A DNA stretch of 64,000 nt from the NCBI GenBank assembly GCA_016932315.1, contig JAFGDD010000014.1, positions 1,924 through 65,923 on the forward strand, read 5' to 3'. Positions 3 to 51,582 of this stretch are shown here, in pieces. The notes under the pieces were generated by a model. That model was given only the letters and a program-made list of their open reading frames with translations. It was not told where the DNA came from and did no database searches. Source of the stretch: Candidatus Woesearchaeota archaeon (GTDB lineage: Archaea; Nanobdellota; Nanobdellia; Woesearchaeales; SM23-78). Position 1 is the first letter of the stretch, and each line of letters begins with the position of its first letter. The translations under genes were made by a program, and so were the position numbers.

Positions 3-746
3 AAAACAACGGAAGGAGTTTTAAGCTTTAACTCGTTTACATTAGATGACTATTTAAAAGAAAGAGTTGAACTAAACGAAAAAGAAATAAATTATCAAAA
101 TGCTAAAATAAAGATTAGAGAAAAAATTGCAGATGGAATTACCTTCATATACAAAGCAATTTTCAAGCCAAAAAAAACAGAAAACGAGGCTCTCTGCGAA
201 ATTATCAACAGGGAAAAAAACAAAAAAACACTTCTTGAAGAGGGGGCGGGAAATGACACTCTGTACCTTGATGTTCTTGGAAAAATAAAGCCAGAAAAAT
301 ATTATCGATCTGACGTTTCTGAAAATCAGTTAAATCAAGTGCAGGATTTGAGAGTTGAAAATATTATATATGATGGAATTCGACATGATATTGAAGACAA
401 CAGCATCGACATTGCTTTTTCTAAGTGCGTTCTGCACCACATAGATAATGGTTGTGAGGCAGGAAGAGAAAGGAATAGGATTGACTATCTCATAGAACAA
501 AAAAGAATTGTAAAAGAAGGAGGTAAAGTGATTACTGTCGATGTAAATGACCCTAGAAAAGGGAATTTAAAAGCTAAATTTTGGCACTACATCAAACATA
601 GGCTTATACTGGGAGAAGAAGAGCACAATTTTTTAGATGAGCAAAAAGCAGTATCCCTGTATCATAAAGCTGGCTTCAAGAATATAACGAACCAAAAGGT
701 TGAGACTTATAAAGGAACATATTTCATTGTTATAGGAGAAAAATAA
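3..746 (+). CDS. Class I SAM-dependent methyltransferase, 5'-truncated by window edge
   Basis: The frame of ORF 339..746 is open back to position 3. It has motif I LLEEGAGND, SIDIAFSKCVLHH and RIVKEGG. Confidence 0.85.
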   Translation, partial: KTTEGVLSFNSFTLDDYLKERVELNEKEINYQNAKIKIREKIADGITFIYKAIFKPKKTENEALCEIINREKNKKTLLEEGAGNDTLYLDVLGKIKPEKYYRSDVSENQLNQVQDLRVENIIYDGIRHDIEDNSIDIAFSKCVLHHIDNGCEAGRERNRIDYLIEQKRIVKEGGKVITVDVNDPRKGNLKAKFWHYIKHRLILGEEEHNFLDEQKAVSLYHKAGFKNITNQKVETYKGTYFIVIGEK

Positions 747-42256: not shown

Positions 42257-44161
42257 TTAAGATTTCTTTCCGAACAGCCTGTTGAAGAAAGCAGATATTT
42301 CCTTTATTACCTTGGCAAAGAATCCTTCTTTTTTCACTGGCTCCTGTTTTGGCGGCTCTGGCTCTGGCTGCTCTTGCTGGGGGATATTGGTCTCTTGTTT
42401 TTTCTCAGCAGGTTTAACCTTGATAGTAAGATTCTTGCTGACCAGGAAATTCTTTGCCTCAATGCCTGCAAAGGTTTTTATCATTAGCTCAGTGTTATTA
42501 AAATCTTCAGGAATGAATAGTTTGTAAGTATAGGCTTGCCTGGTTTCTGCCCTGTCAAACAGCATTGTCTCGCTGGTACTCGTCATACCGCCGCCAAGGG
42601 TCGCGCCTCTTGTGTACTCATCCCTCACTGTAACCTTGATGGATTCCTGGTTGTTATTAGTTATTTTAATAGTGATGGTTACGTTGTTGCCGGCAACCAA
42701 TTCTTGTGTGTCTGCTGATTGCGATATGCTTATTGCATCTGCAACAGGAGTTACTGTAAAGCTTACTTTCTCAGAGAAGTTGCGGTTCTCGCTGGTTGAT
42801 GTCTCGTAGCTTCCGCTGGCTATGATGTCATATGTTACTTTATTGTCGACAAAAGGAGCTTCTAAAGAATCATTAACAATAATTGTCTTGGTAGCTTCTG
42901 GCATTAGCTCTGCAAGCTCTGCTGTTAAGTCAGGCAAGAATGTGCTTGTTACCTTGGCTTTGATGTTCCTGAAACCAACTATTTTGTTGGGGTTATTGAC
43001 AGAAAAGGCTATTCTAAAGATTCCTCCTTCTGACACGCTGGTCTCAAGCACTGAAAGTATTGGGTCAATTGGCTGAATGTTGGATGTTAGGCTCAGATTT
43101 TTTGTCTCAGAAAAAACCTTGCCTTCTGAATCGAGCAGGCGTAGCTCAACAAGGAAATTGTACCTGCCTGATTTGACTGGCTTGAGCAAAAGGTTTATCA
43201 TCTTGTAGTTATCTGGCTTTATTATGCCTTTCCAGGAATACTTATCATTCTTCTTTTCAAGCTCTCCTGGCAATGACTGCAGTGTTATGTAGCTAGGAAT
43301 AGTTATTTTCAGCTCTGTAACATTAATGTCAACAGAAACATCATTTTCTACTCTTAAACTAATGGCTGTTTGCTCAGAAGCTTCAATGCTCGACGGAGAA
43401 ATCGATGCTGAGAAGGTGTAAGGCTTAATTACCTTTACGCTTTGGCTTGAACTCTTTAACCCGTAAGATTTTCCTTGGTAAGTATGATTAACAATTGCTG
43501 AGTTAGAGAAGTCAAGATAGCCAGTAACCTTGAATGTGTAAGTAAATGTCTTCTCACTCTCAGATGCCAGGTTGCCTGAATAGCTTATGCTTTTAAGGCT
43601 GCGAGTTGTTCCTGAAGAAGAGGATAATATTTCAATTCCTTCAGGGTATTCCTCAAAATAGCTCAGGCTGTCTGTGCCATCACTTCCAGTGTTCTTTAGC
43701 ACTACTGAAACAGTAACTTCGCCATTAAGTTCTGGCGTGTCATCTGAGAAAGTCCTGGTAACAGTGATGTCCGGCCCATAAGTCTTTACTAGTATTGAGA
43801 TGCCTGCATAAGCCCTGCCCTCAACAAACTTGATATGGTCGCCATCCTCAGCATTAAGCACATCCCTAAAGATTTCCTCTATGCAAGTCTCCCTTATGCC
43901 TGTAACCTTGCATTCACCCTCCTTAATGATATAGGAGTTCTTGTTAATCCCGACAATAACAGATGTGTCTTCTATATCATAATGAGTTATGGTGTAAACA
44001 TCTCCTTCAACAGAGAAGGTGTCGCCAGAGTAGTGCCAGTCATTATACAAGTCTTTGGCCTGGGCAAAACAGCATAAAGTCAGCAATAATAACAGGCTTG
44101 AAATGAAAAGAAGAGTTGCCTTTACAAAGTTTTGTTTCATAAATGTTTTTCTTCTAATCAA
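42257..44161 (-). CDS. Secreted Ig-like / S-layer-associated protein
   Basis: Signal peptide, beta-rich repeats, amphipathic C-terminus FFAKVIKEISAFFNRLF. Confidence 0.8.
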   Translation of the reverse strand: MIRRKTFMKQNFVKATLLFISSLLLLLTLCCFAQAKDLYNDWHYSGDTFSVEGDVYTITHYDIEDTSVIVGINKNSYIIKEGECKVTGIRETCIEEIFRDVLNAEDGDHIKFVEGRAYAGISILVKTYGPDITVTRTFSDDTPELNGEVTVSVVLKNTGSDGTDSLSYFEEYPEGIEILSSSSGTTRSLKSISYSGNLASESEKTFTYTFKVTGYLDFSNSAIVNHTYQGKSYGLKSSSQSVKVIKPYTFSASISPSSIEASEQTAISLRVENDVSVDINVTELKITIPSYITLQSLPGELEKKNDKYSWKGIIKPDNYKMINLLLKPVKSGRYNFLVELRLLDSEGKVFSETKNLSLTSNIQPIDPILSVLETSVSEGGIFRIAFSVNNPNKIVGFRNIKAKVTSTFLPDLTAELAELMPEATKTIIVNDSLEAPFVDNKVTYDIIASGSYETSTSENRNFSEKVSFTVTPVADAISISQSADTQELVAGNNVTITIKITNNNQESIKVTVRDEYTRGATLGGGMTSTSETMLFDRAETRQAYTYKLFIPEDFNNTELMIKTFAGIEAKNFLVSKNLTIKVKPAEKKQETNIPQQEQPEPEPPKQEPVKKEGFFAKVIKEISAFFNRLFGKKS

Positions 44162-44314
44162 GAATATAAATGTTTTTCGCTTATCAAAATATGCCTATTT
44201 GAATTGGTGGTAAAAAAGAGAAAAGAAGAAAAAAAAGAAAACAAAATTGCTAGAGAAATTTTGAATATTTTTTAAAAAGAAAAAAAGAAAAAAAGAAAAA
44301 ATTTGTTTTTGGTT

Positions 44315-46852
44315 TTAGCCAACCTTGTTCACAGTGATTGTGTTCAGGTCTGCAACTACAACTTCTGCCTCAGTCCCTGAGAGGTCATAGTCTTCGTAGT
44401 CTGCTAGCACATAGCATGCGCCTAGTGTGTCCTGAGCTCCATAACCTGCTACGAGCAAGGCGTTCTTGTCAGCAAAGAGCTTGATAACTGCTTTGCCTGG
44501 AGTAAATCCTTCTGTGCAAGTTGCTGGGTTGCCCATTAACTCAGCTGCTGCTGTGTTGACGCAAGGTCCTCCAACCACTATCATGTTCTCGCTTCCGAGA
44601 GCTGGGGCTTCTGTGTCAAGCACTGCTAATCCAACTGCAATTGGGTTGAGTGTGGTGCTTGATATTGTGCCTCCTGATGTGGCTGTTCCTTCCTTGACTT
44701 CAACAACGCCTGCTGTCACAAACACTTGAGCACCCTTCTGTGTTAGCGGGTAGTCAATTGTTATTTCAGCTGCTTCTGTTCCAGAGCTTGGGTAGTACCT
44801 TGTGTACTTGGCGCCATATATGTCGTATCCGTATGAGTAGTCATCATTCTCTGGGTCGTCGACCAATGTTGGATCGTTCACTGTTGAACTGATCTTGTTA
44901 GCTGTTGCGCTGGTAATGGTCAAGTCGCTTGAGATTGGACCGTCTCCAGACTCATCAAACAGAGATGCTGGCGTTGTTATACTGACGTTAACTACATCGC
45001 TATAGTCAGTAATAGCGTATGGGTTGGTTAAGTTGTCATAACTGTCTCCTAAGCTGAAGATTTGTGTTCCGTTGCCTAGGTCAAGGACTGCTCCTCCCTT
45101 AGCTACTAGCTTTAACTCTGTGGCGTTGATTGCGTCATTTCCATCCAAGTCCATAGTCAATGCATAGTCCTCTGAAGCGGTTGCTGAGGATGCTCCTACA
45201 TAGAAGTCGTGGGTTTTTCCTGCAACAATCAGCTCACCAGTTGCTGTTGAACCTACAGTTCCTGAGTATGACACAACAATTGTGTCTCCTGCCAGGTCTC
45301 TGAAAGTTACTGTGCTGTCGCCTGTGCTTATTGACTGGTATCTCAATACGCTGCTTACTGCCTTGCTGTCATCAGTAGTGCCTGTTGCCCTGTCTGATAA
45401 CAGGAAGTAGTCATTGTCTGAGATAAAGGTGGCGTTGTTCGTTGGAGTTGTACCAACAATTGGTCCCCAGTATGTTGGTTCGGTGAAGATGAAGTCATCA
45501 TCATCGTCTCCATACTTGAAGATGCTGTTTTTGTTGGTTATGAAGGGGAAGCTGTATGCGTCTCCGTTCACATTGACAAACTCTAAGTCATAGCTGTGGT
45601 CAGATTTGGCATTAAACTTTATTGTGCTTACGCCTGTGTTCATCAGGCCTGCGTACTTAATGTCCCATGTGTCTGTCAGCAATCCTTCTGGCTCTGTCAT
45701 GTACTCCTTCACGCCTTTGCCTGCTGGCACATAGATGTCGTCGTCAGCAAGTACTTTGTACTTGATGTAGTTCAGCTTGGTTGTAGTGCTAGACTCAGCA
45801 GTTCCTTTTATTATTAAATAGGCATCGCTGATGCTTTCACTGTTAACCTTGACTGTGCCTTGTGCATAGGTGCTGTCTGTGAAGTCAGTGTCTGTCAACT
45901 CTATCTTGTTAGCTCCAAGGAAGAACTCAACAATACCTTCTCTTTGGTTTGTCAATATTTCTTGGACTCCAACAGTCACTTCTGAGCTGAGGACATCTGT
46001 CTCTCCTTCATTGAGCTCTTTGGTTAACATTCCGTTAACGCTTAGCTTTGCAGACTGGTCGTCGCTGCTAATGAACACAGCAGTCACTTCATAGTCCTTA
46101 CCATCTATAGTATAGGTCTTGGTTTCGCCGTCCTTTAAGGTGTCAGCTACTTCTCCTCCCAATAAGGTAAGGCTCATGTCGTTGCCGTTGGCCATTGAAG
46201 CAGTTGTTATGGTGAAAGGCGCGCCTAATATTGTTAAGACTTCACTTTCAAAGTCATTAAGGGCGTTACTCTCGTTGTCTGCTGCTGCTCCTTCTGTGAA
46301 CTCCATGTGGTACTCAAATATTGTTGAGCCATCAGTGATTTTCAAGAAGTCGCCAACTTCATCGTCGTCATTCTCAGCATAGGTTACTGACATCGTGGTG
46401 TTGTCGAATTTCAGGTATTGATTGACTGGTGTCGTGCTTTCTCCTGTGTCAAAAACCCCTGACTTCAACGCATCCAAGTCAGTATGTCTAAAAGTTGACT
46501 TTACGCTGCCGATTGTTTCTCCAATTCGGATAAAGTCATTTCCAGTCTTGAACTCTGCTGAGTCTCCTGTCACTGTTGCTTTTCCAGCTGCATCTGGTAG
46601 CTCTACTTCTGTGGTTGTGCTGGCTGATGCCTGCAAACTAGCTGCGAGATCAATCGCTCCTACGACGTCAGATGTAGCTGCTTTTGCTCCGACAACAATC
46701 TTGCCGTCGAAGACGCCGTTGGCAACGAAAGGCGCAGGATAGTTACTCAGGTCAAGTGCCATTGCTCCCATAATAGTGGCTCCTACCATGGTAGTTCCAG
46801 CAACCAGAGCTGCTATCTTTTTTACTGTCTTTCGCATATTCAATTTAAACAC
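44315..46852 (-). CDS. S-layer protein
   Basis: LSNYPAPFV..IVVGAKAATSDVVGAID and NMIVVGGPCVN motifs; acidic; the GGAGGTG RBS favours a start at TTG 46843 or ATG 46837. Confidence 0.93.
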   Translation of the reverse strand: MFKLNMRKTVKKIAALVAGTTMVGATIMGAMALDLSNYPAPFVANGVFDGKIVVGAKAATSDVVGAIDLAASLQASASTTTEVELPDAAGKATVTGDSAEFKTGNDFIRIGETIGSVKSTFRHTDLDALKSGVFDTGESTTPVNQYLKFDNTTMSVTYAENDDDEVGDFLKITDGSTIFEYHMEFTEGAAADNESNALNDFESEVLTILGAPFTITTASMANGNDMSLTLLGGEVADTLKDGETKTYTIDGKDYEVTAVFISSDDQSAKLSVNGMLTKELNEGETDVLSSEVTVGVQEILTNQREGIVEFFLGANKIELTDTDFTDSTYAQGTVKVNSESISDAYLIIKGTAESSTTTKLNYIKYKVLADDDIYVPAGKGVKEYMTEPEGLLTDTWDIKYAGLMNTGVSTIKFNAKSDHSYDLEFVNVNGDAYSFPFITNKNSIFKYGDDDDDFIFTEPTYWGPIVGTTPTNNATFISDNDYFLLSDRATGTTDDSKAVSSVLRYQSISTGDSTVTFRDLAGDTIVVSYSGTVGSTATGELIVAGKTHDFYVGASSATASEDYALTMDLDGNDAINATELKLVAKGGAVLDLGNGTQIFSLGDSYDNLTNPYAITDYSDVVNVSITTPASLFDESGDGPISSDLTITSATANKISSTVNDPTLVDDPENDDYSYGYDIYGAKYTRYYPSSGTEAAEITIDYPLTQKGAQVFVTAGVVEVKEGTATSGGTISSTTLNPIAVGLAVLDTEAPALGSENMIVVGGPCVNTAAAELMGNPATCTEGFTPGKAVIKLFADKNALLVAGYGAQDTLGACYVLADYEDYDLSGTEAEVVVADLNTITVNKVG

Positions 46853-47013: not shown

Positions 47014-47186
47014 AGTATGGGGAGGTGATTGGGTGATGATTTTTTTATAAGGCTTAAAAACTCTGAATTCGCTATAATTAACCATTTTTAATTTTTGAGT
47101 GATTACAACATCATTTTTTAAATAGTCAATATTATCATGTATATTATATAATTAAATTATTAGTTCTGCCTGAAAGAAAAAAAGGT

Positions 47187-47205
47187 TATGCGGGGAGAAG
47201 GATTC
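47187..47205 (-). repeat. 19-bp direct duplication of the tRNA-Leu 3' end
   Basis: TATGCGGGGAGAAGGATTC is identical to 47284..47302. Confidence 0.9.
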
Positions 47206-47285
47206 CCACCAACCTTTAGCGCAAAGGTTGACGAAAAAATGCGGCATGCGTTCGCTTCGCTCACTTAGCCCCATAAAAAAGAGTA

Positions 47286-47501
47286 TGCGGGGAGAAGGAT
47301 TCGAACCCTCGCAGGCACTACTCCAAGGTTGGCACCTTGAATTGCCAAGGCCAAGCCTTGTCTACTCCAAGACTAGCGTCTTGTCCTGCCAAGACCTACA
47401 TCTTGTCTAAGCCAACAGGTCTCTTAGACTAGAGACGCTGTCTCCTAAGCCTGTCCCGTAAAGCCACCTTTTTTTGGTTTTGGCCGCTCCGGCATCCCCG
47501 C
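47286..47501 (-). tRNA. tRNA-Leu(UAG) with introns in the D-loop (47460..47479), at 37/38 (47421..47443) and in the variable arm (47318..47406, two tandem units)
   Basis: Spliced GCGGGGATGCCGGAGCGGCCAAACGGGACAGGCTTAGGACCTGTTGGCTTAGTGCCTGCGAGGGTTCGAATCCTTCTCCCCGCA; each site forms a BHB motif. Confidence 0.92.
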
Positions 47502-47621: not shown

Positions 47622-47810
47622 ATGAAAGTAGTTCTTAACCGAGGCCAGTATAAGATAACCATTCCTAAGGATTTAGCAGAAGAAAAAGGATGGGGAGCTG
47701 GCACCAAGATAAGATTTGTCGAGGATGCAGATGGAAAAATATTCCTCAAAGTGATAGAACTAAAACCGCTCAAGAAAGAGATTGCTGCAAAAGATAAGAC
47801 GAGAAAATGA
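47622..47810 (+). CDS. AbrB/MazE/SpoVT family DNA-binding protein
   Basis: GQYKITIPKDLAEEKGWGAG..IRF; ATGA overlap with the next gene. Confidence 0.88.
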   Translation: MKVVLNRGQYKITIPKDLAEEKGWGAGTKIRFVEDADGKIFLKVIELKPLKKEIAAKDKTRK

Positions 47811-49744
47811 ATCATAACGAGAACATAAGAAAACTTGAAGAAACCCTAAACGAAGTAATCAGATTTACAAACGAGCTAGATGAAAAGCTGGCAAGAAACG
47901 AAATCGACGGCATCCATTATCATGTCTTGCTGAATGAAAAACTCAGCGGAAGAACAAAAGAAGAAATCATCAGCCACATCGAGCAAAAAATCAAAGAAGA
48001 AAAAAACAAAGCACGAGAGGGCAAAAAGAAGACTATAACAATCAGCGCAGCAGCTATCATACTAATAATAATAGCAATAATAGGAATAATATACCCTAAT
48101 CCAGGCGCATTAACAGGCTACACCACAGCAACCAAGCAAATAGAACAAAAAATTGATTATAACAGAGTATTTGAACACTACACAGAAACACAACTAGACC
48201 TAACAAATCTAACGAGCCTCAAGATATCCGGAACACTAGAAGGAACAGGAGCAAAAATCAAACTAAGAATAAACGGAACAGAATACCTGATAGCGCAAAT
48301 AACCAATCCGACAGAACAACCAAGCCAAATAACAGGAATGGTAATAGAAGAAGAAACAACACAATACACAATAACAACAGACAAAACAACATACACCCTC
48401 GGAGAAACAGCAACAATAACAATAACACCAACAACAAACAACCAATCACTATATGTTTCCTATGGCGAAGAAACACACAAACTAGAAACAAACACATACA
48501 AACCAGAAACCACAGGAAACTATCAGATCATAGCACTAATAGTACTACCAGAAGACATCATAAGGATAAACACAAACTTCACAGTAACAAGCAAAAATAA
48601 TTCTATTTTTGCAGTTCCAGAAAAGTCAAACTTTTCTGAAACAGAAACAACCACAACAGAAGAAACGCCAAAAGAAACAAATGAAACAAACCAAACAACA
48701 CCAACAAACGAAACAACACCAACAGAAAACACAACAGTCAACGAAACAAACCAAACCAATGAAACCACACCAACAGAACCAACAACAAACGCATTCGTAT
48801 TCGAAAACCTATGCACAGAAACATGCACGCTAACAGAAAACAGTAACCCAGTATTGATAGTTGAACTGGATGACAACACAACACTAACCATAAACACACT
48901 AACAACAACGCAAACCAAAGAAAACCTTGCGCCAGAACAAAACAAAAACATACCCGACATAACACTCGCAAAAGGAGAATCAAGAACAATCAACCTAAAC
49001 AACTACTTCAAAGACCCAGAAGAAGAAACAATACAATACGACATAAACAAAATACCAGAAATAACAACCACAATAAACCAAAACGAACTAACAATAACAT
49101 CACAAAACCTCGGAAAATACACAGCTTACATATACGCAACAGACGGAAACAAAATGATAGTAAGCAACACATTCACAATCACCATAACAGAAACAACAGA
49201 AGAAACAACCACAGAAACAAACCAAACAACAAACGAAACAACAGGACTGCCAATAAGCAATGAAACCGAAATTGTTCTCACTCCAATAATTGATTGCGGC
49301 AATCCTAACCCCAACAACAGGCCTGTTGAGTGCATGATAGGACAGGAAGACAAGTACTTCAAGGACAAATCCATCTTCATAGAAAACCTTGACAAGACGC
49401 AAGTCGCAAGAATAACTGCATTCGGCAACATGGTGATAAGAGGAAAGCTATACGAGAACTCAATCTATGCTCCGAGCAGCAGGGACTTCAGGGTTAATTA
49501 CTTCATCGATGATGGAGAGACAGAAGTGGTGAGCGCATGGATAGACACAGCAACAGGAGACTTGCATCTAAGAGGCACAGCGCATGAAGAGCAGTTCAGC
49601 ATCATCCCACCAAGCACTGGAGCATTCATCATCCAGAACAGGAAAGGAACCAACCTTGGATTCATAGACAAGATTACAGGAGATTTGTATTTGAGAGGCA
49701 ATCTGATACAAGAGCAGCCTGAAGAAAACGTGATAACACAATGA
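47807..49744 (+). CDS. Membrane-anchored surface glycoprotein with Thr/Glu/Asn linkers and a 3-repeat C-terminal domain
   Basis: TM helix, NET sequon repeats, Ig-like LNNYFKDPE module. Confidence 0.85.
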   Translation: MNHNENIRKLEETLNEVIRFTNELDEKLARNEIDGIHYHVLLNEKLSGRTKEEIISHIEQKIKEEKNKAREGKKKTITISAAAIILIIIAIIGIIYPNPGALTGYTTATKQIEQKIDYNRVFEHYTETQLDLTNLTSLKISGTLEGTGAKIKLRINGTEYLIAQITNPTEQPSQITGMVIEEETTQYTITTDKTTYTLGETATITITPTTNNQSLYVSYGEETHKLETNTYKPETTGNYQIIALIVLPEDIIRINTNFTVTSKNNSIFAVPEKSNFSETETTTTEETPKETNETNQTTPTNETTPTENTTVNETNQTNETTPTEPTTNAFVFENLCTETCTLTENSNPVLIVELDDNTTLTINTLTTTQTKENLAPEQNKNIPDITLAKGESRTINLNNYFKDPEEETIQYDINKIPEITTTINQNELTITSQNLGKYTAYIYATDGNKMIVSNTFTITITETTEETTTETNQTTNETTGLPISNETEIVLTPIIDCGNPNPNNRPVECMIGQEDKYFKDKSIFIENLDKTQVARITAFGNMVIRGKLYENSIYAPSSRDFRVNYFIDDGETEVVSAWIDTATGDLHLRGTAHEEQFSIIPPSTGAFIIQNRKGTNLGFIDKITGDLYLRGNLIQEQPEENVITQ

Positions 49745-51582
49745 TGCAAAAAAATAATTTGCAAAAAATGATAAAGCAAACGCTCTGGCTAGTGCTCACT
49801 ATAATAATATTATCTAATCTTGCAATGTTGGCATCTGCTGAGAATGATCCAGGCCACGACACATTATATATAGAGCAGACAGGAGACAGCGAGCTCACAG
49901 GAATGTTCAACGTCAGCGAGAACTTCACAGTAAAAGGAGGAAATGCATTCCTGAAAGACAACCTTGACATCTTCTTCAACGGCATCACGCCAGACTTGAC
50001 TAATAGAAATGTAATATCAGGCTCAGCCACAGACTTATACCTTGACGCGAAATCAAGCGGCAATATTTATCTGAATGCTTTCAACAACGGAGGCAACATC
50101 TACGTCGGAGGAGCAGGCGACACAGTCAACCTTAACGTTACAGGAGCTCTTTATGTTGGAGGATTAGACTACTCTGCTACTAAAGTTTGCTTAGCCAACG
50201 GAAGCCATTGCCCGGCAGCAATAAGCGGAGCAAACCTCACAGCAAACAGCGCAACCTCAGGATATATTGTACAATTCCAGAATGCAAGCGTACTAAACAA
50301 CTCAGTAATTTATCAGAGCGGAAGCAACATAGGAATAGGAACAACAAGCCCAAACGTAACACTACACGTAAACGGAAGCATAAACGTAACAACAGGATAC
50401 GACGTATGCATAGAAGACGGAACATGCCTGAGTACAGTAAGCGGGGGAGACGCAAGCGAAAGAACACTAAACGCAACAACAAACCTCTTGAATACTACAA
50501 TACAAACAGCAGCAACAAACATAAGCGCAATAAACACAACAGTAACAACACTAGCAACAAACACATCAGCAATAAACGACACAAGAAAAGCAGGAGACGA
50601 CGCACTAAACGTTACAATAGTCCAAATAAACGGAAACCTAACACAAGCAGCAAGCAACATAAGCGCACTAAACACAAGCAAAGGAGGAACAGGAAACTGC
50701 GCAGAAGGAACACTAGTACAAAACACCACAACAACAGGAGTAGAATGCGCAGCAGCAGGTGGCGCCGACGAAGTTGGAACATTAACTAATACTTATGTGT
50801 GCTACACAGACGGAGACGCAGTCTTGTGCGACGACGCAGGAATGACATTCACAGCAGCAACCAACACAATAACAGCAGGAAACATCACAGTAACAACTAA
50901 CATAACAACAGGAAACTTATCAGTAACCACACTAATAACAGCAGGAGCACTTAACTGCACTGACTGCATAGACGGAGCAGACTTAGCAGACACTGTTGAA
51001 TTGGATGCTATTCTTGCAATCAATGGCTACAATGTTACTTTCAACACATCAGTCCTGCATGTTGACGTGACAAATGGAAGAGTAGGAGTAGGAACAGCAG
51101 CACCGGGCTATGCTCTAGAAGTTGTCGGCAGCGGAACTACGGTTATCAATCTAAAAGATAGTGCTGATAGCGTCGAGACAATAATTTCAGCCCAAGCAGA
51201 TAAAGGAAGAATAGGCACCAGAAGCAACCACGACTTGAATATAGTAACGAATAACGTTGCAAAGATGATTATAGCAAAATCAGGCTATGTTAGCATAAAC
51301 ACCACATCACCAGATGCTACGCTGGCAGTAGCAGGAAATCTAAGCGTTACCGGAACAACCAACAGCAGCATAGACTCAGGAACACTATTCATAGACGCAA
51401 CCAACAACAAAGTAGGAGTAGGCACTGCCGCCCCTGATTCTTTGCTTGATGTGCAGAGCAGCAATATTGCCACTCAATTAAGAGTCAGCTATGATGACAC
51501 ATATTATTCCAACATAAGCGCTGACGCAACAGGCAACCTTACTATAAAGGCTGTTAATCATGTAATTATTGATTTAAGTTAA
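49741..51582 (+). CDS. Secreted fibre/adhesin-like protein
   Basis: Signal peptide; repeated (N/R/K)(I/V)G(I/V)GT..P beta-repeats and a short coiled coil, as in trimeric fibre proteins. Confidence 0.8.
   Translation: MMQKNNLQKMIKQTLWLVLTIIILSNLAMLASAENDPGHDTLYIEQTGDSELTGMFNVSENFTVKGGNAFLKDNLDIFFNGITPDLTNRNVISGSATDLYLDAKSSGNIYLNAFNNGGNIYVGGAGDTVNLNVTGALYVGGLDYSATKVCLANGSHCPAAISGANLTANSATSGYIVQFQNASVLNNSVIYQSGSNIGIGTTSPNVTLHVNGSINVTTGYDVCIEDGTCLSTVSGGDASERTLNATTNLLNTTIQTAATNISAINTTVTTLATNTSAINDTRKAGDDALNVTIVQINGNLTQAASNISALNTSKGGTGNCAEGTLVQNTTTTGVECAAAGGADEVGTLTNTYVCYTDGDAVLCDDAGMTFTAATNTITAGNITVTTNITTGNLSVTTLITAGALNCTDCIDGADLADTVELDAILAINGYNVTFNTSVLHVDVTNGRVGVGTAAPGYALEVVGSGTTVINLKDSADSVETIISAQADKGRIGTRSNHDLNIVTNNVAKMIIAKSGYVSINTTSPDATLAVAGNLSVTGTTNSSIDSGTLFIDATNNKVGVGTAAPDSLLDVQSSNIATQLRVSYDDTYYSNISADATGNLTIKAVNHVIIDLS

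Follow-up and report, generated by a model that had tools for sequence, protein, structure and literature searches.

In twintrons and recursive splicing (group II/III and spliceosomal introns), the removal of one intron creates the substrate for the next. Among archaeal tRNAs, the multi-intron tRNAs of Thermoproteales contain several introns that depend on EndA and a bulge-helix-bulge (BHB) motif and that lie at non-canonical positions (Sugahara 2008 and Fujishima 2010, via PMC4033280 and PMC4090602). In the same group, near-alike 'transposing' introns occur in different tRNA genes, which points to intron spread restricted to sites where the junction can form a BHB. Three introns have been given as the maximum per archaeal tRNA gene (PMC4033280, PMC8450103), and Asgard archaea are described as having up to five intervening sequences per tRNA gene and variable-region insertions in class II tRNAs (bioRxiv 10.64898/2026.10.13.758758). 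According to the authors of tRNAscan-SE 2.0, certain closely spaced introns leave no second BHB until one of them has been taken out (PMC8450103). Here we analyze a 64,000-nucleotide stretch from a Candidatus Woesearchaeota archaeon (assembly GCA_016932315.1, contig JAFGDD010000014.1, positions 1,924 to 65,923; the whole stretch is called the window), and in it a tRNA-Leu(UAG) gene with four introns, two of which are homologous units that abut at a single position of the variable loop.

The locus resembles each of these systems in part. Like the Thermoproteales genes it has several EndA/BHB introns, some at non-canonical positions, but those genes have at most three, each at its own position, whereas here there are four (five in G005/L147), two of them homologous at one position. 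The enzyme also differs, being a crenarchaeal (alpha-beta)2 EndA in Thermoproteales and a single alpha-type EndA in the DPANN-like lineage studied here, where the intron family is found at one site of one isotype. Iterative removal as in tRNAscan-SE 2.0 would also apply to unit 2, but the published case concerns introns in proximity, whereas the present units are homologous, abut at the same nucleotide and regenerate the junction (PMC8450103). Asgard tRNA genes share heavy interruption, variable-region inserts and a tendency to be missed by standard annotators; they belong to a different phylum, and their same-site insertions are in different genomes and not stacked in one gene (bioRxiv 10.64898/2026.10.13.758758). 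The words 'tandem', 'nested', 'recursive' and 'sequential' are absent from the main text of that preprint. The literature searched, supplementary tables of intron positions not being covered, contained no description of homologous introns stacked at one position. An earlier note on this DNA had held that triple-intron tRNAs are described and same-site stacking is not; the novelty of the stacking stands within this scope, but the ordered removal of close introns and the presence of more than three introns are already known. Twintrons share with the present proposal the sequential removal, and differ in chemistry, machinery and nesting. No intron interrupts another here: the units abut, and each is complete and homologous to lone units in relatives.

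Neither ARAGORN nor an Rfam gathering search found a tRNA in the raw 64-kb window, because of the introns and not because the gene is absent. When the D-loop intron, the 37/38 intron and the 89-nt insert were cut out by script, ARAGORN reported an 84-nt tRNA-Leu(tag) with a normal cloverleaf; removal of the intervening sequences restores a canonical tRNA, as is expected for BHB introns. With only the 23-nt 37/38 intron left in, ARAGORN in intron mode still called Leu(tag) with a 23-nt canonical intron, and with either variable-loop unit left in it made no Leu call. The coordinates, lengths and unit boundaries given in the earlier note for the four introns were correct. The parts of the gene are as follows, where idx numbers run along the minus strand and idx 1 is window position 47501.

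47286..47501, minus strand: tRNA-Leu(UAG) gene, 216 nt with introns and 84 nt spliced (ARAGORN on the script-spliced sequence)
47480..47501, minus strand: exon 1, with the acceptor 5' strand, the D-stem 5' strand and most of the D-loop
47460..47479 (idx 23-42), minus strand: D-loop intron, 20 nt, HBh' type
47444..47459, minus strand: exon 2, with the D-stem 3' strand, the anticodon stem 5' strand, the anticodon UAG and position 37
47421..47443 (idx 59-81), minus strand: canonical 37/38 intron, 23 nt, full hBHBh'
47407..47420, minus strand: exon 3, with position 38, the anticodon stem 3' strand and the variable arm 5' half, ending ..GGCUUAG
idx 96-184, minus strand: variable-loop insert, unit 1 plus unit 2, 89 nt
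47362..47406 (idx 96-140), minus strand: variable-loop intron unit 1 ('A-type'), 45 nt
47318..47361 (idx 141-184), minus strand: variable-loop intron unit 2 ('B-type'), 44 nt
47286..47317, minus strand: exon 4, with the variable arm 3' half, the T arm, the acceptor 3' strand and the discriminator A
47273..47285, minus strand: T-run TACTCTTTTTTAT, directly 3' of the gene, read from the sequence

Exon 4 ends at the discriminator A, and CCA is not encoded. The T-run TACTCTTTTTTAT is a likely transcription stop. The source genome (G000; 1.34 Mb in 28 contigs, 91% complete) contains five Leu genes that we could find, among which the present gene alone represents Leu(UAG), so it is probably essential. 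The other four have no insert at the variable-arm site and carry the intron-free variable arm GGCTTAGTGCC.

The 89-nt insert consists of two homologous units of 45 and 44 nt, as the earlier note had read it, with a global identity of 71%. A repeat search detected both copies at a spacing of 44 nt (35 nt long, 74% ungapped identity) and, within a unit, a half-unit repeat of 19 nt (79%); it also showed the exon/intron junction to resemble the intron/intron junction. Tandem Repeats Finder reported no repeat in the insert, which is expected for copies about 70% alike. Searching the source genome by blastn-short with each unit and with the D-loop and 37/38 introns gave no second copy beyond chance-level 11-18-mers. 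Two other ways of dividing the insert were rejected. The individual hairpins of about 20 nt are not separate introns, as the four nucleotides after hairpin 1 do not pair with GCUU, and cut registers elsewhere within the repeated UAG fail because the 4-bp central helix exists only in the ..UUAG| register (checked by hand). C/D-box guide RNAs of the type found in the tRNA-Trp intron have a C box (RUGAUGA) and a D box (CUGA). On reading the sequence, neither box was seen in either unit, and we do not consider the units to encode such a guide.

In order to score the junctions we used a BHB rule in the wording of the Asgard preprint (bioRxiv 10.64898/2026.10.13.758758). Four exon nucleotides 5' of the 3-nt 5' bulge pair with four intron nucleotides 5' of the 3-nt 3' bulge to give the central helix H; at least one flanking helix (h or h') has at least two pairs; and the two 3-nt bulges, on opposite strands, hold the cut sites. 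A script returned the following values. For the D-loop intron, H is GGCC/GGCU (4/4), the bulges are AA|A and UU|A, h' has 3 pairs and h none. The 37/38 intron has H CUUA/UAAG (4/4), bulges GG|A and AG|A, h' 3 and h 6. Of the two clean BHBs that had been claimed for these introns, both thus have a complete central helix, but the one in the D-loop lacks the outer exon helix and is of the HBh' type, not a full hBHBh'. Unit 1 in its tandem context has H GCUU/GAGU (4/4), bulges AG|A and AG|A, h' 6 and h 3, the outer helix using bases at the beginning of unit 2.

Unit 2 behaves differently. As long as unit 1 is present, the only pairing at its junction is GAGU/GAGU (H 2/4, h' 5, h 0), which is not a BHB; after removal of unit 1 in the script, H becomes 4/4, with bulges AG|A and AG|U, h' 5 and h 0. 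The central helix, the bulges and a flanking helix are therefore in place for the D-loop intron, the 37/38 intron, unit 1, and unit 2 once unit 1 has been removed, and in silico the first intron has to be gone for the second BHB to form. The earlier idea that excising unit 1 leaves unit 2 with an identical 5' junction was borne out by this change from 2/4 to 4/4. In the other three tandem genes known to us (described below), unit 1 has H 4/4 with h' 5-6 and h 2-3, and removal of unit 1 raises H of unit 2 from 1/4 to 3/4 in L147 and from 2/4 to 4/4 in L166 and L158. Unit 2 cannot leave first. As it has no BHB until unit 1 is gone, removal is either stepwise with unit 1 first, or of all 89 nt together.

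Comparative data support the pairing of the intron GAGU with the exon GCUU as the central helix, which had been proposed from this gene. Exon and intron change in step: the helix is GCUU/GAGU in most units, GUUU/GAAU in G002 (an unpublished genome), ACUU/GAGU in a G008 gene and GCUC/GAGC in G003. The exon change to GUUU in G002 is also compensated in the mature variable stem. This covariation is the strongest comparative sign that the GCUU/GAGU pairing is real. G012 has an intron at the same D-loop site with an h' that is altered yet paired (ACUU/AAGU).

On this basis, our preferred reading is that of a functional tRNA-Leu(UAG) gene that loses four BHB introns by means of EndA and RtcB, with the same-site units removed stepwise; as a whole statement we hold it with modest confidence. 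The gene, its motifs, the variation in copy number and the enzymes are observed, whereas we infer expression, cut order and tandem origin. At the variable-arm site (..UUAG|U..), the exon GCUU alone can serve as the 5' half of a central BHB helix. It would pair with the GAGU that ends unit 1 and so complete an hBHBh' motif, in which h' would be the long hairpin of unit 1. EndA would then cut at ..UUAG|A and ..GUAG|A and release unit 1, and ligation of the exon to unit 2 by RtcB would recreate an identical junction. In a second round, the same exon GCUU could pair with the unit-2 GAGU, and unit 2 would be removed, restoring the UUAGU loop common to all Leu tRNAs of the genus. We consider this order, unit 1 and then unit 2, to be fairly probable for the tandem. 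The tandem is part of a genus-wide family of introns of about 45 nt, confined to this Leu site and present in zero, one or two copies. It may have arisen by a second insertion at the target regenerated by the first intron, or by an old duplication, and is retained in at least three lineages.

The family was delineated with an alignment of 21 units from 17 genes and a covariance model of the unit, searched in 18 genomes of the taxonomic family. The unit was found in 11 of the 18, among them 10 of the 14 other genomes of the genus, and in 0 of 3 genomes of the sister genus. Leu genes of the genus share the variable arm GGCTTAG|TGCC, and all inserts sit at the bar. The reading in the earlier note implied that relatives with a single unit should exist, and they do. 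The Leu(UAG) gene has two units in G000, G005 and L166, one unit in G012 and G002 (G012 also shares the D-loop and 37/38 intron sites), and none in G009, G003 and G008. A single unit is also present in Leu genes with other anticodons in G005, G006, G008, G010, G011, G014 and G003. L158 is a further tandem; its contig does not include the 5' half of the gene, hence the anticodon is not on the contig.

The four tandems are built alike. In all of them a unit of the CAAGA..UCUUG subtype precedes one of the CAAGGCYUGGCCUUG subtype, and the internal GAGUAG|ACAAG junction is intact in 4/4. Across lineages, first units are 87-93% alike and second units 84-93% alike, while unit 1 and unit 2 of one gene are 71-83% alike (93% in L158). 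Unit 1 of G000 is accordingly nearer to the other first units (87-93%) than to its own unit 2 (71%), and the same holds for unit 2. From the shared unit order and the likeness across lineages it follows that the tandem is older than the lineages that carry it. By these sequence comparisons it is inherited or rebuilt in the same order, and is not a recent slip in the source strain. The units also resemble mobile introns in being near-identical in tRNAs of different identity (86% mean column identity; anticodons TAG, TAA, CAA, CAG and GAG), and unit 2 of L158 recurs letter for letter as the lone unit of a G005 Leu(CAA) gene. Because the units all occupy a single site of one isotype, gene conversion among paralogs may also account for this likeness.

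Two observations on the structure of related genes may be added. The Leu(UAG) gene of G005 (L147/L003) has a D-loop intron, a long 37/38 intron, two tandem units and a T-loop insert of about 42 nt, that is, five intervening sequences. In L006 (G006:C29) and L158 a Leu gene is present only from where its anticodon-loop intron ends, with the unit or units included, and no 5' half could be recognized within 150-200 nt upstream; the upstream DNA of L158 is much richer in GC. These 5'-less genes could be split genes, genes with a very long intron, or the result of chimeric contigs.

Additional evidence for the tandem came from public data. We scanned genome and metagenome contigs with a gapped junction pattern that required exact motifs, so that diverged tandems are missed. 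One of the 10 matching stretches in genome contigs was real, as were 3 of 18 in metagenome contigs. The genome-contig match, L147 (Euryarchaeota archaeon SM23-78), is identical to the G005 locus over the stretch compared. The metagenome matches are L160 (the same sequence as L147), L166 (on a 570-kb contig, close to the window) and L158 (a third lineage). No locus with two junctions, as expected for a triple unit, was among the gapped-pattern matches in genome and metagenome contigs. A scan with a 15-mer of the junction gave no real case among the 120 matches listed; two were flagged by the context filter, and neither was a tRNA. A Logan contig from run X2 (another study) covers the gene from the T arm to a point 30 nt inside unit 1, with unit 2 complete, and misses the bridging rule by one letter. 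In run X1, the best holder of the window, contig record 7 covers 47362-47501, derives from a G012-like organism and is without exactly the 44 nt of unit 2; one- and two-unit Leu(UAG) forms co-occur in this sediment sample. The X1 Logan contigs leave 47337-47353 uncovered at the likeness used, a gap from which we draw no conclusion. Since the tandem is present in three further independent assemblies with the same unit order, it is not a misassembly, and the concern over a misassembled repeat that had been raised at the outset is answered by L147/L160, L166, L158 and the X2 contig. We are highly confident that the gene and its tandem are real.

The genome encodes both enzymes, an endonuclease and an RtcB ligase, that BHB introns depend on. 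EndA is the product of a single gene (G000:C14:178342-178941) with the N-terminal and catalytic domains (PF02778 and PF01974) and an extension rich in lysine, and RtcB (PF01139) is encoded at C27:19256-20557. EndA is closest to the alpha subunit of the Nanoarchaeum equitans enzyme (3IEY_A), followed by the M. kandleri and M. jannaschii enzymes. A search of the 91%-complete assembly with the EndA protein at E<=10 found only itself and no second paralog, while the same query does recognize the N. equitans beta subunit in PDB (4.6e-17). In comparison with 3IEY_A, EndA is 6 residues shorter in one C-terminal loop, which may or may not be L3. Alpha4-type EndAs with an 'L3' loop have been reported from several DPANN lineages with many disrupted tRNA genes (Kaneta et al. 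2018, PMC5829648). On locus L181, the EndA gene lies at 1474-2547 on the minus strand; its open frame runs about 120 codons upstream of the likely start (MPKKKSKK..), and the protein has a lysine/glutamate-rich N-terminal extension of about 65 residues before the EndA N-terminal domain.

The fold of a single unit differs in part from two CAAG..CTTG hairpins, the structure put forward in the earlier note. All four arms of a unit are mutually complementary and can form either two side-by-side hairpins or one long hairpin, the closing helix of which is h' of the canonical BHB. The RNAfold minimum free energy (MFE) structure is the long hairpin in 18 of 21 units, the two-hairpin fold in one (G006) and another fold in two, and in direct comparison with the long hairpin the two-hairpin fold is the less stable one in 20 of 21 units. 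For unit 1 the long hairpin has -15.4 kcal/mol. Its closing pair 14:45 is paired in 20/21 units, six of them via G-U. The long-hairpin topology also occurs in more distant introns at the same site, namely L019 (from another family of the order) and L179 (from G004), where a plain closing helix encloses an inner hairpin. A unit can always form the closing helix on which the BHB depends, and both folds are accessible to it. The two hairpins per unit are possible and have the better covariation at the one discriminating pair, but one long imperfect hairpin describes the units better (MFE in 18/21).

The strongest alternative takes the 89 nt as one composite intron, removed in a single round by the outermost cuts only (..UUAG|A and the last ..GUAG|U), the internal junction remaining unused. 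The exon GCUU would then pair with the distal GAGU, and the unit hairpins would be mere internal structure. Nothing in the pairing itself opposes this, as the two GAGU copies are identical and GCUU has no sequence preference between them, and the two bulges would lie on either side of a single 4-bp helix, the arrangement that EndA needs. The energies of the whole precursor, computed with the cloverleaf enforced, are less favorable to it. The precursor with the unit-1 BHB has -87.9 kcal/mol, in comparison with -78.2 kcal/mol for a BHB over all 89 nt, so that the one-step fold is about 10 kcal/mol less stable; the cloverleaf alone gives -88.7 kcal/mol and the unconstrained minimum is -92.4 kcal/mol. 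With both units folded as long hairpins, pairing of the exon GCUU with the proximal GAGU gives -85.9 kcal/mol and with the distal GAGU -81.8 kcal/mol. With the units self-folded, moreover, the 5' cut site of a composite intron lies in a three-way junction and not in a 3-nt bulge. The G005 tandem has 4/4 pairs in the proximal helix but only 3/4 in the distal one, and the internal GAGUAG|ACAAG junction, which a composite intron would not use, is kept in all four tandems. We prefer the stepwise route because it uses canonical motifs only and has the more stable fold. As a preference drawn from motifs and modeled fold energies, it is not proof, and we regard removal as one composite intron as a possible, though rather unlikely, route.

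Several results weigh against stepwise splicing as we propose it, or against parts of it. The whole insert, scored as one intron, passes the motif rule (H 4/4, 3-nt bulges, h' with 4 contiguous pairs, h 0), and its h' reaches 6 in M158. The final-step BHB, with unit 1 gone, has no outer helix h, and in G005 it has only 3/4 central pairs. Alpha-type EndA is classically held to need strict BHBs, so a single alpha-type EndA together with a relaxed final-step motif counts against the proposal. With respect to the long hairpin, the pair that discriminates the two-hairpin fold (columns 14:22 of the 21-unit alignment) is AU in 10, GC in 10 and other in 1, whereas its long-hairpin counterpart, 22:37, is unpaired in 7/21 units. 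Swapping the middle segments changed the energy from -15.7 kcal/mol (native) to -14.25 kcal/mol (swapped), a gain of 1.4 with mixed ranks that is too weak to choose between the folds. No RNA run was found to carry the stretch, and two metatranscriptome runs of the X1 study gave no match, so that neither expression nor a splicing intermediate was seen. Finally, the rpoB tree groups G000 with the 0-unit genomes G003 and G009 (SH-aLRT 93-94) and G005 with the 1-unit genome G002 (SH-aLRT 97). This is a single-gene tree with G008 left out and four unsupported forks, and it was used only to show the interleaving of 0-, 1- and 2-unit genomes, which requires at least three changes of state (gains or losses).

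The missing match in RNA runs would also fit a decaying or non-spliced copy, in which the insert stays as a giant variable arm, or a pseudogene with the Leu CUA codons read by another tRNA. Another Leu(UAG) gene could be missing from an assembly that is 91% complete, but no other was found in it. The exons are intact and fold into a normal cloverleaf, the BHB is kept at every junction, exon and intron covary in the central helix, and the tandem is kept with preserved structure in three further lineages. The archaeal leucyl-tRNA synthetase (LeuRS) recognizes the tip of the long variable arm as an identity element, and the insert splits a UUAGU loop that is invariant among the Leu genes examined. 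A decaying copy is therefore very improbable.

Least probable is an assembly artefact, by which a one-unit intron was doubled or the alleles of two strains were merged: the X1 Logan contigs do not span the units at 100% identity and one X1 contig from the related organism has a single unit, but units only 71% alike are no collapsed or expanded exact repeat, the same A-then-B tandem is found in L166 (on its 570-kb contig), L147/L160 and L158, and the X2 contig crosses all of unit 2 and 30 nt of unit 1.

How archaeal tRNA introns are gained is unresolved, and the present system offers one intron family at one site in five paralogous hosts, with natural 0-, 1- and 2-copy alleles. It bears on the re-entry of a BHB intron into a site that it regenerates itself, on how a single-subunit DPANN EndA handles relaxed final-step motifs, and on the number of cut-and-ligate rounds that a pre-tRNA undergoes. 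We tentatively put forward, as a doubtful but attractive extension, that a mobile BHB intron re-inserted site-specifically and left the tandem as its footprint, which would have made protein-catalyzed tRNA splicing obligately recursive. Each unit brings its own GAGU and ends in ..UAG, and could in this way regenerate the ..UAG|U target for a unit of the second subtype. If true, the tandem would be a natural record of archaeal tRNA intron gain, for which the route might be, for example, a reversed EndA/ligase reaction with reverse transcription, or targeted recombination.

The locus also bears on tRNA annotation. The Rfam tRNA model matches the whole genome G000 (91% complete) at only 14 places, many of which span 100-140 nt; the tRNA genes of the organism are probably interrupted for the most part and escape standard tools. 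As standard finders miss the present gene and as the genome has so few matches, the tRNA complements of such metagenome-assembled genomes are under-called.

The neighborhood of the Leu genes contains further tRNA-like pieces. In the window (47180-47285, minus strand), a 31-nt copy (87%) of the tRNA 3' end lies 97 nt downstream of the gene, after a perfect 9-bp hairpin, and between the tRNA 3' end and this copy there is a short piece that ends in ..GCCGCA and a T-run. The downstream pieces look like a row of pseudo-3' ends, and may represent an att remnant, minihelix RNAs or decoys. In contig G000:C15, after the Leu(GAG) gene (minus strand, reverse complement from about 26,780 on), and also in L171 and L192, three successive elements are found, each with a T-arm-like start, a 7-9-bp hairpin and an acceptor-like end (..YYRCCCGCA). 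The first hairpin of this array pairs with the tRNA's own 3' end. Similar arrays follow the Leu(CAA) genes of G005 and G003, and the stems vary by species yet stay paired, which suggests from the sequence that the downstream arrays may be small structured RNAs. Immediately upstream of many Leu genes (G000:C9:100239-100309; L166, L007, L171, L172, L173 and L180), tRNA positions 1-13 are duplicated, and behind this copy come an A5-6..T5-6 hairpin, which varies by species with the pairing kept, and a GGNCCGYCAC box. This element resembles a decayed 5' piece with a D-loop intron.

As for the surrounding genes, an open reading frame (ORF) for a 62-residue MazE/AbrB-like protein overlaps the start of two large ORFs (645 and 613 residues, without Pfam matches) at 47622-51582 on the plus strand. 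On the other side of the tRNA gene (42257-46852, minus strand) are genes for an S-layer-like protein of 845 residues and a DUF11 protein. The AT skew is strongly positive over 48-52 kb of the window.

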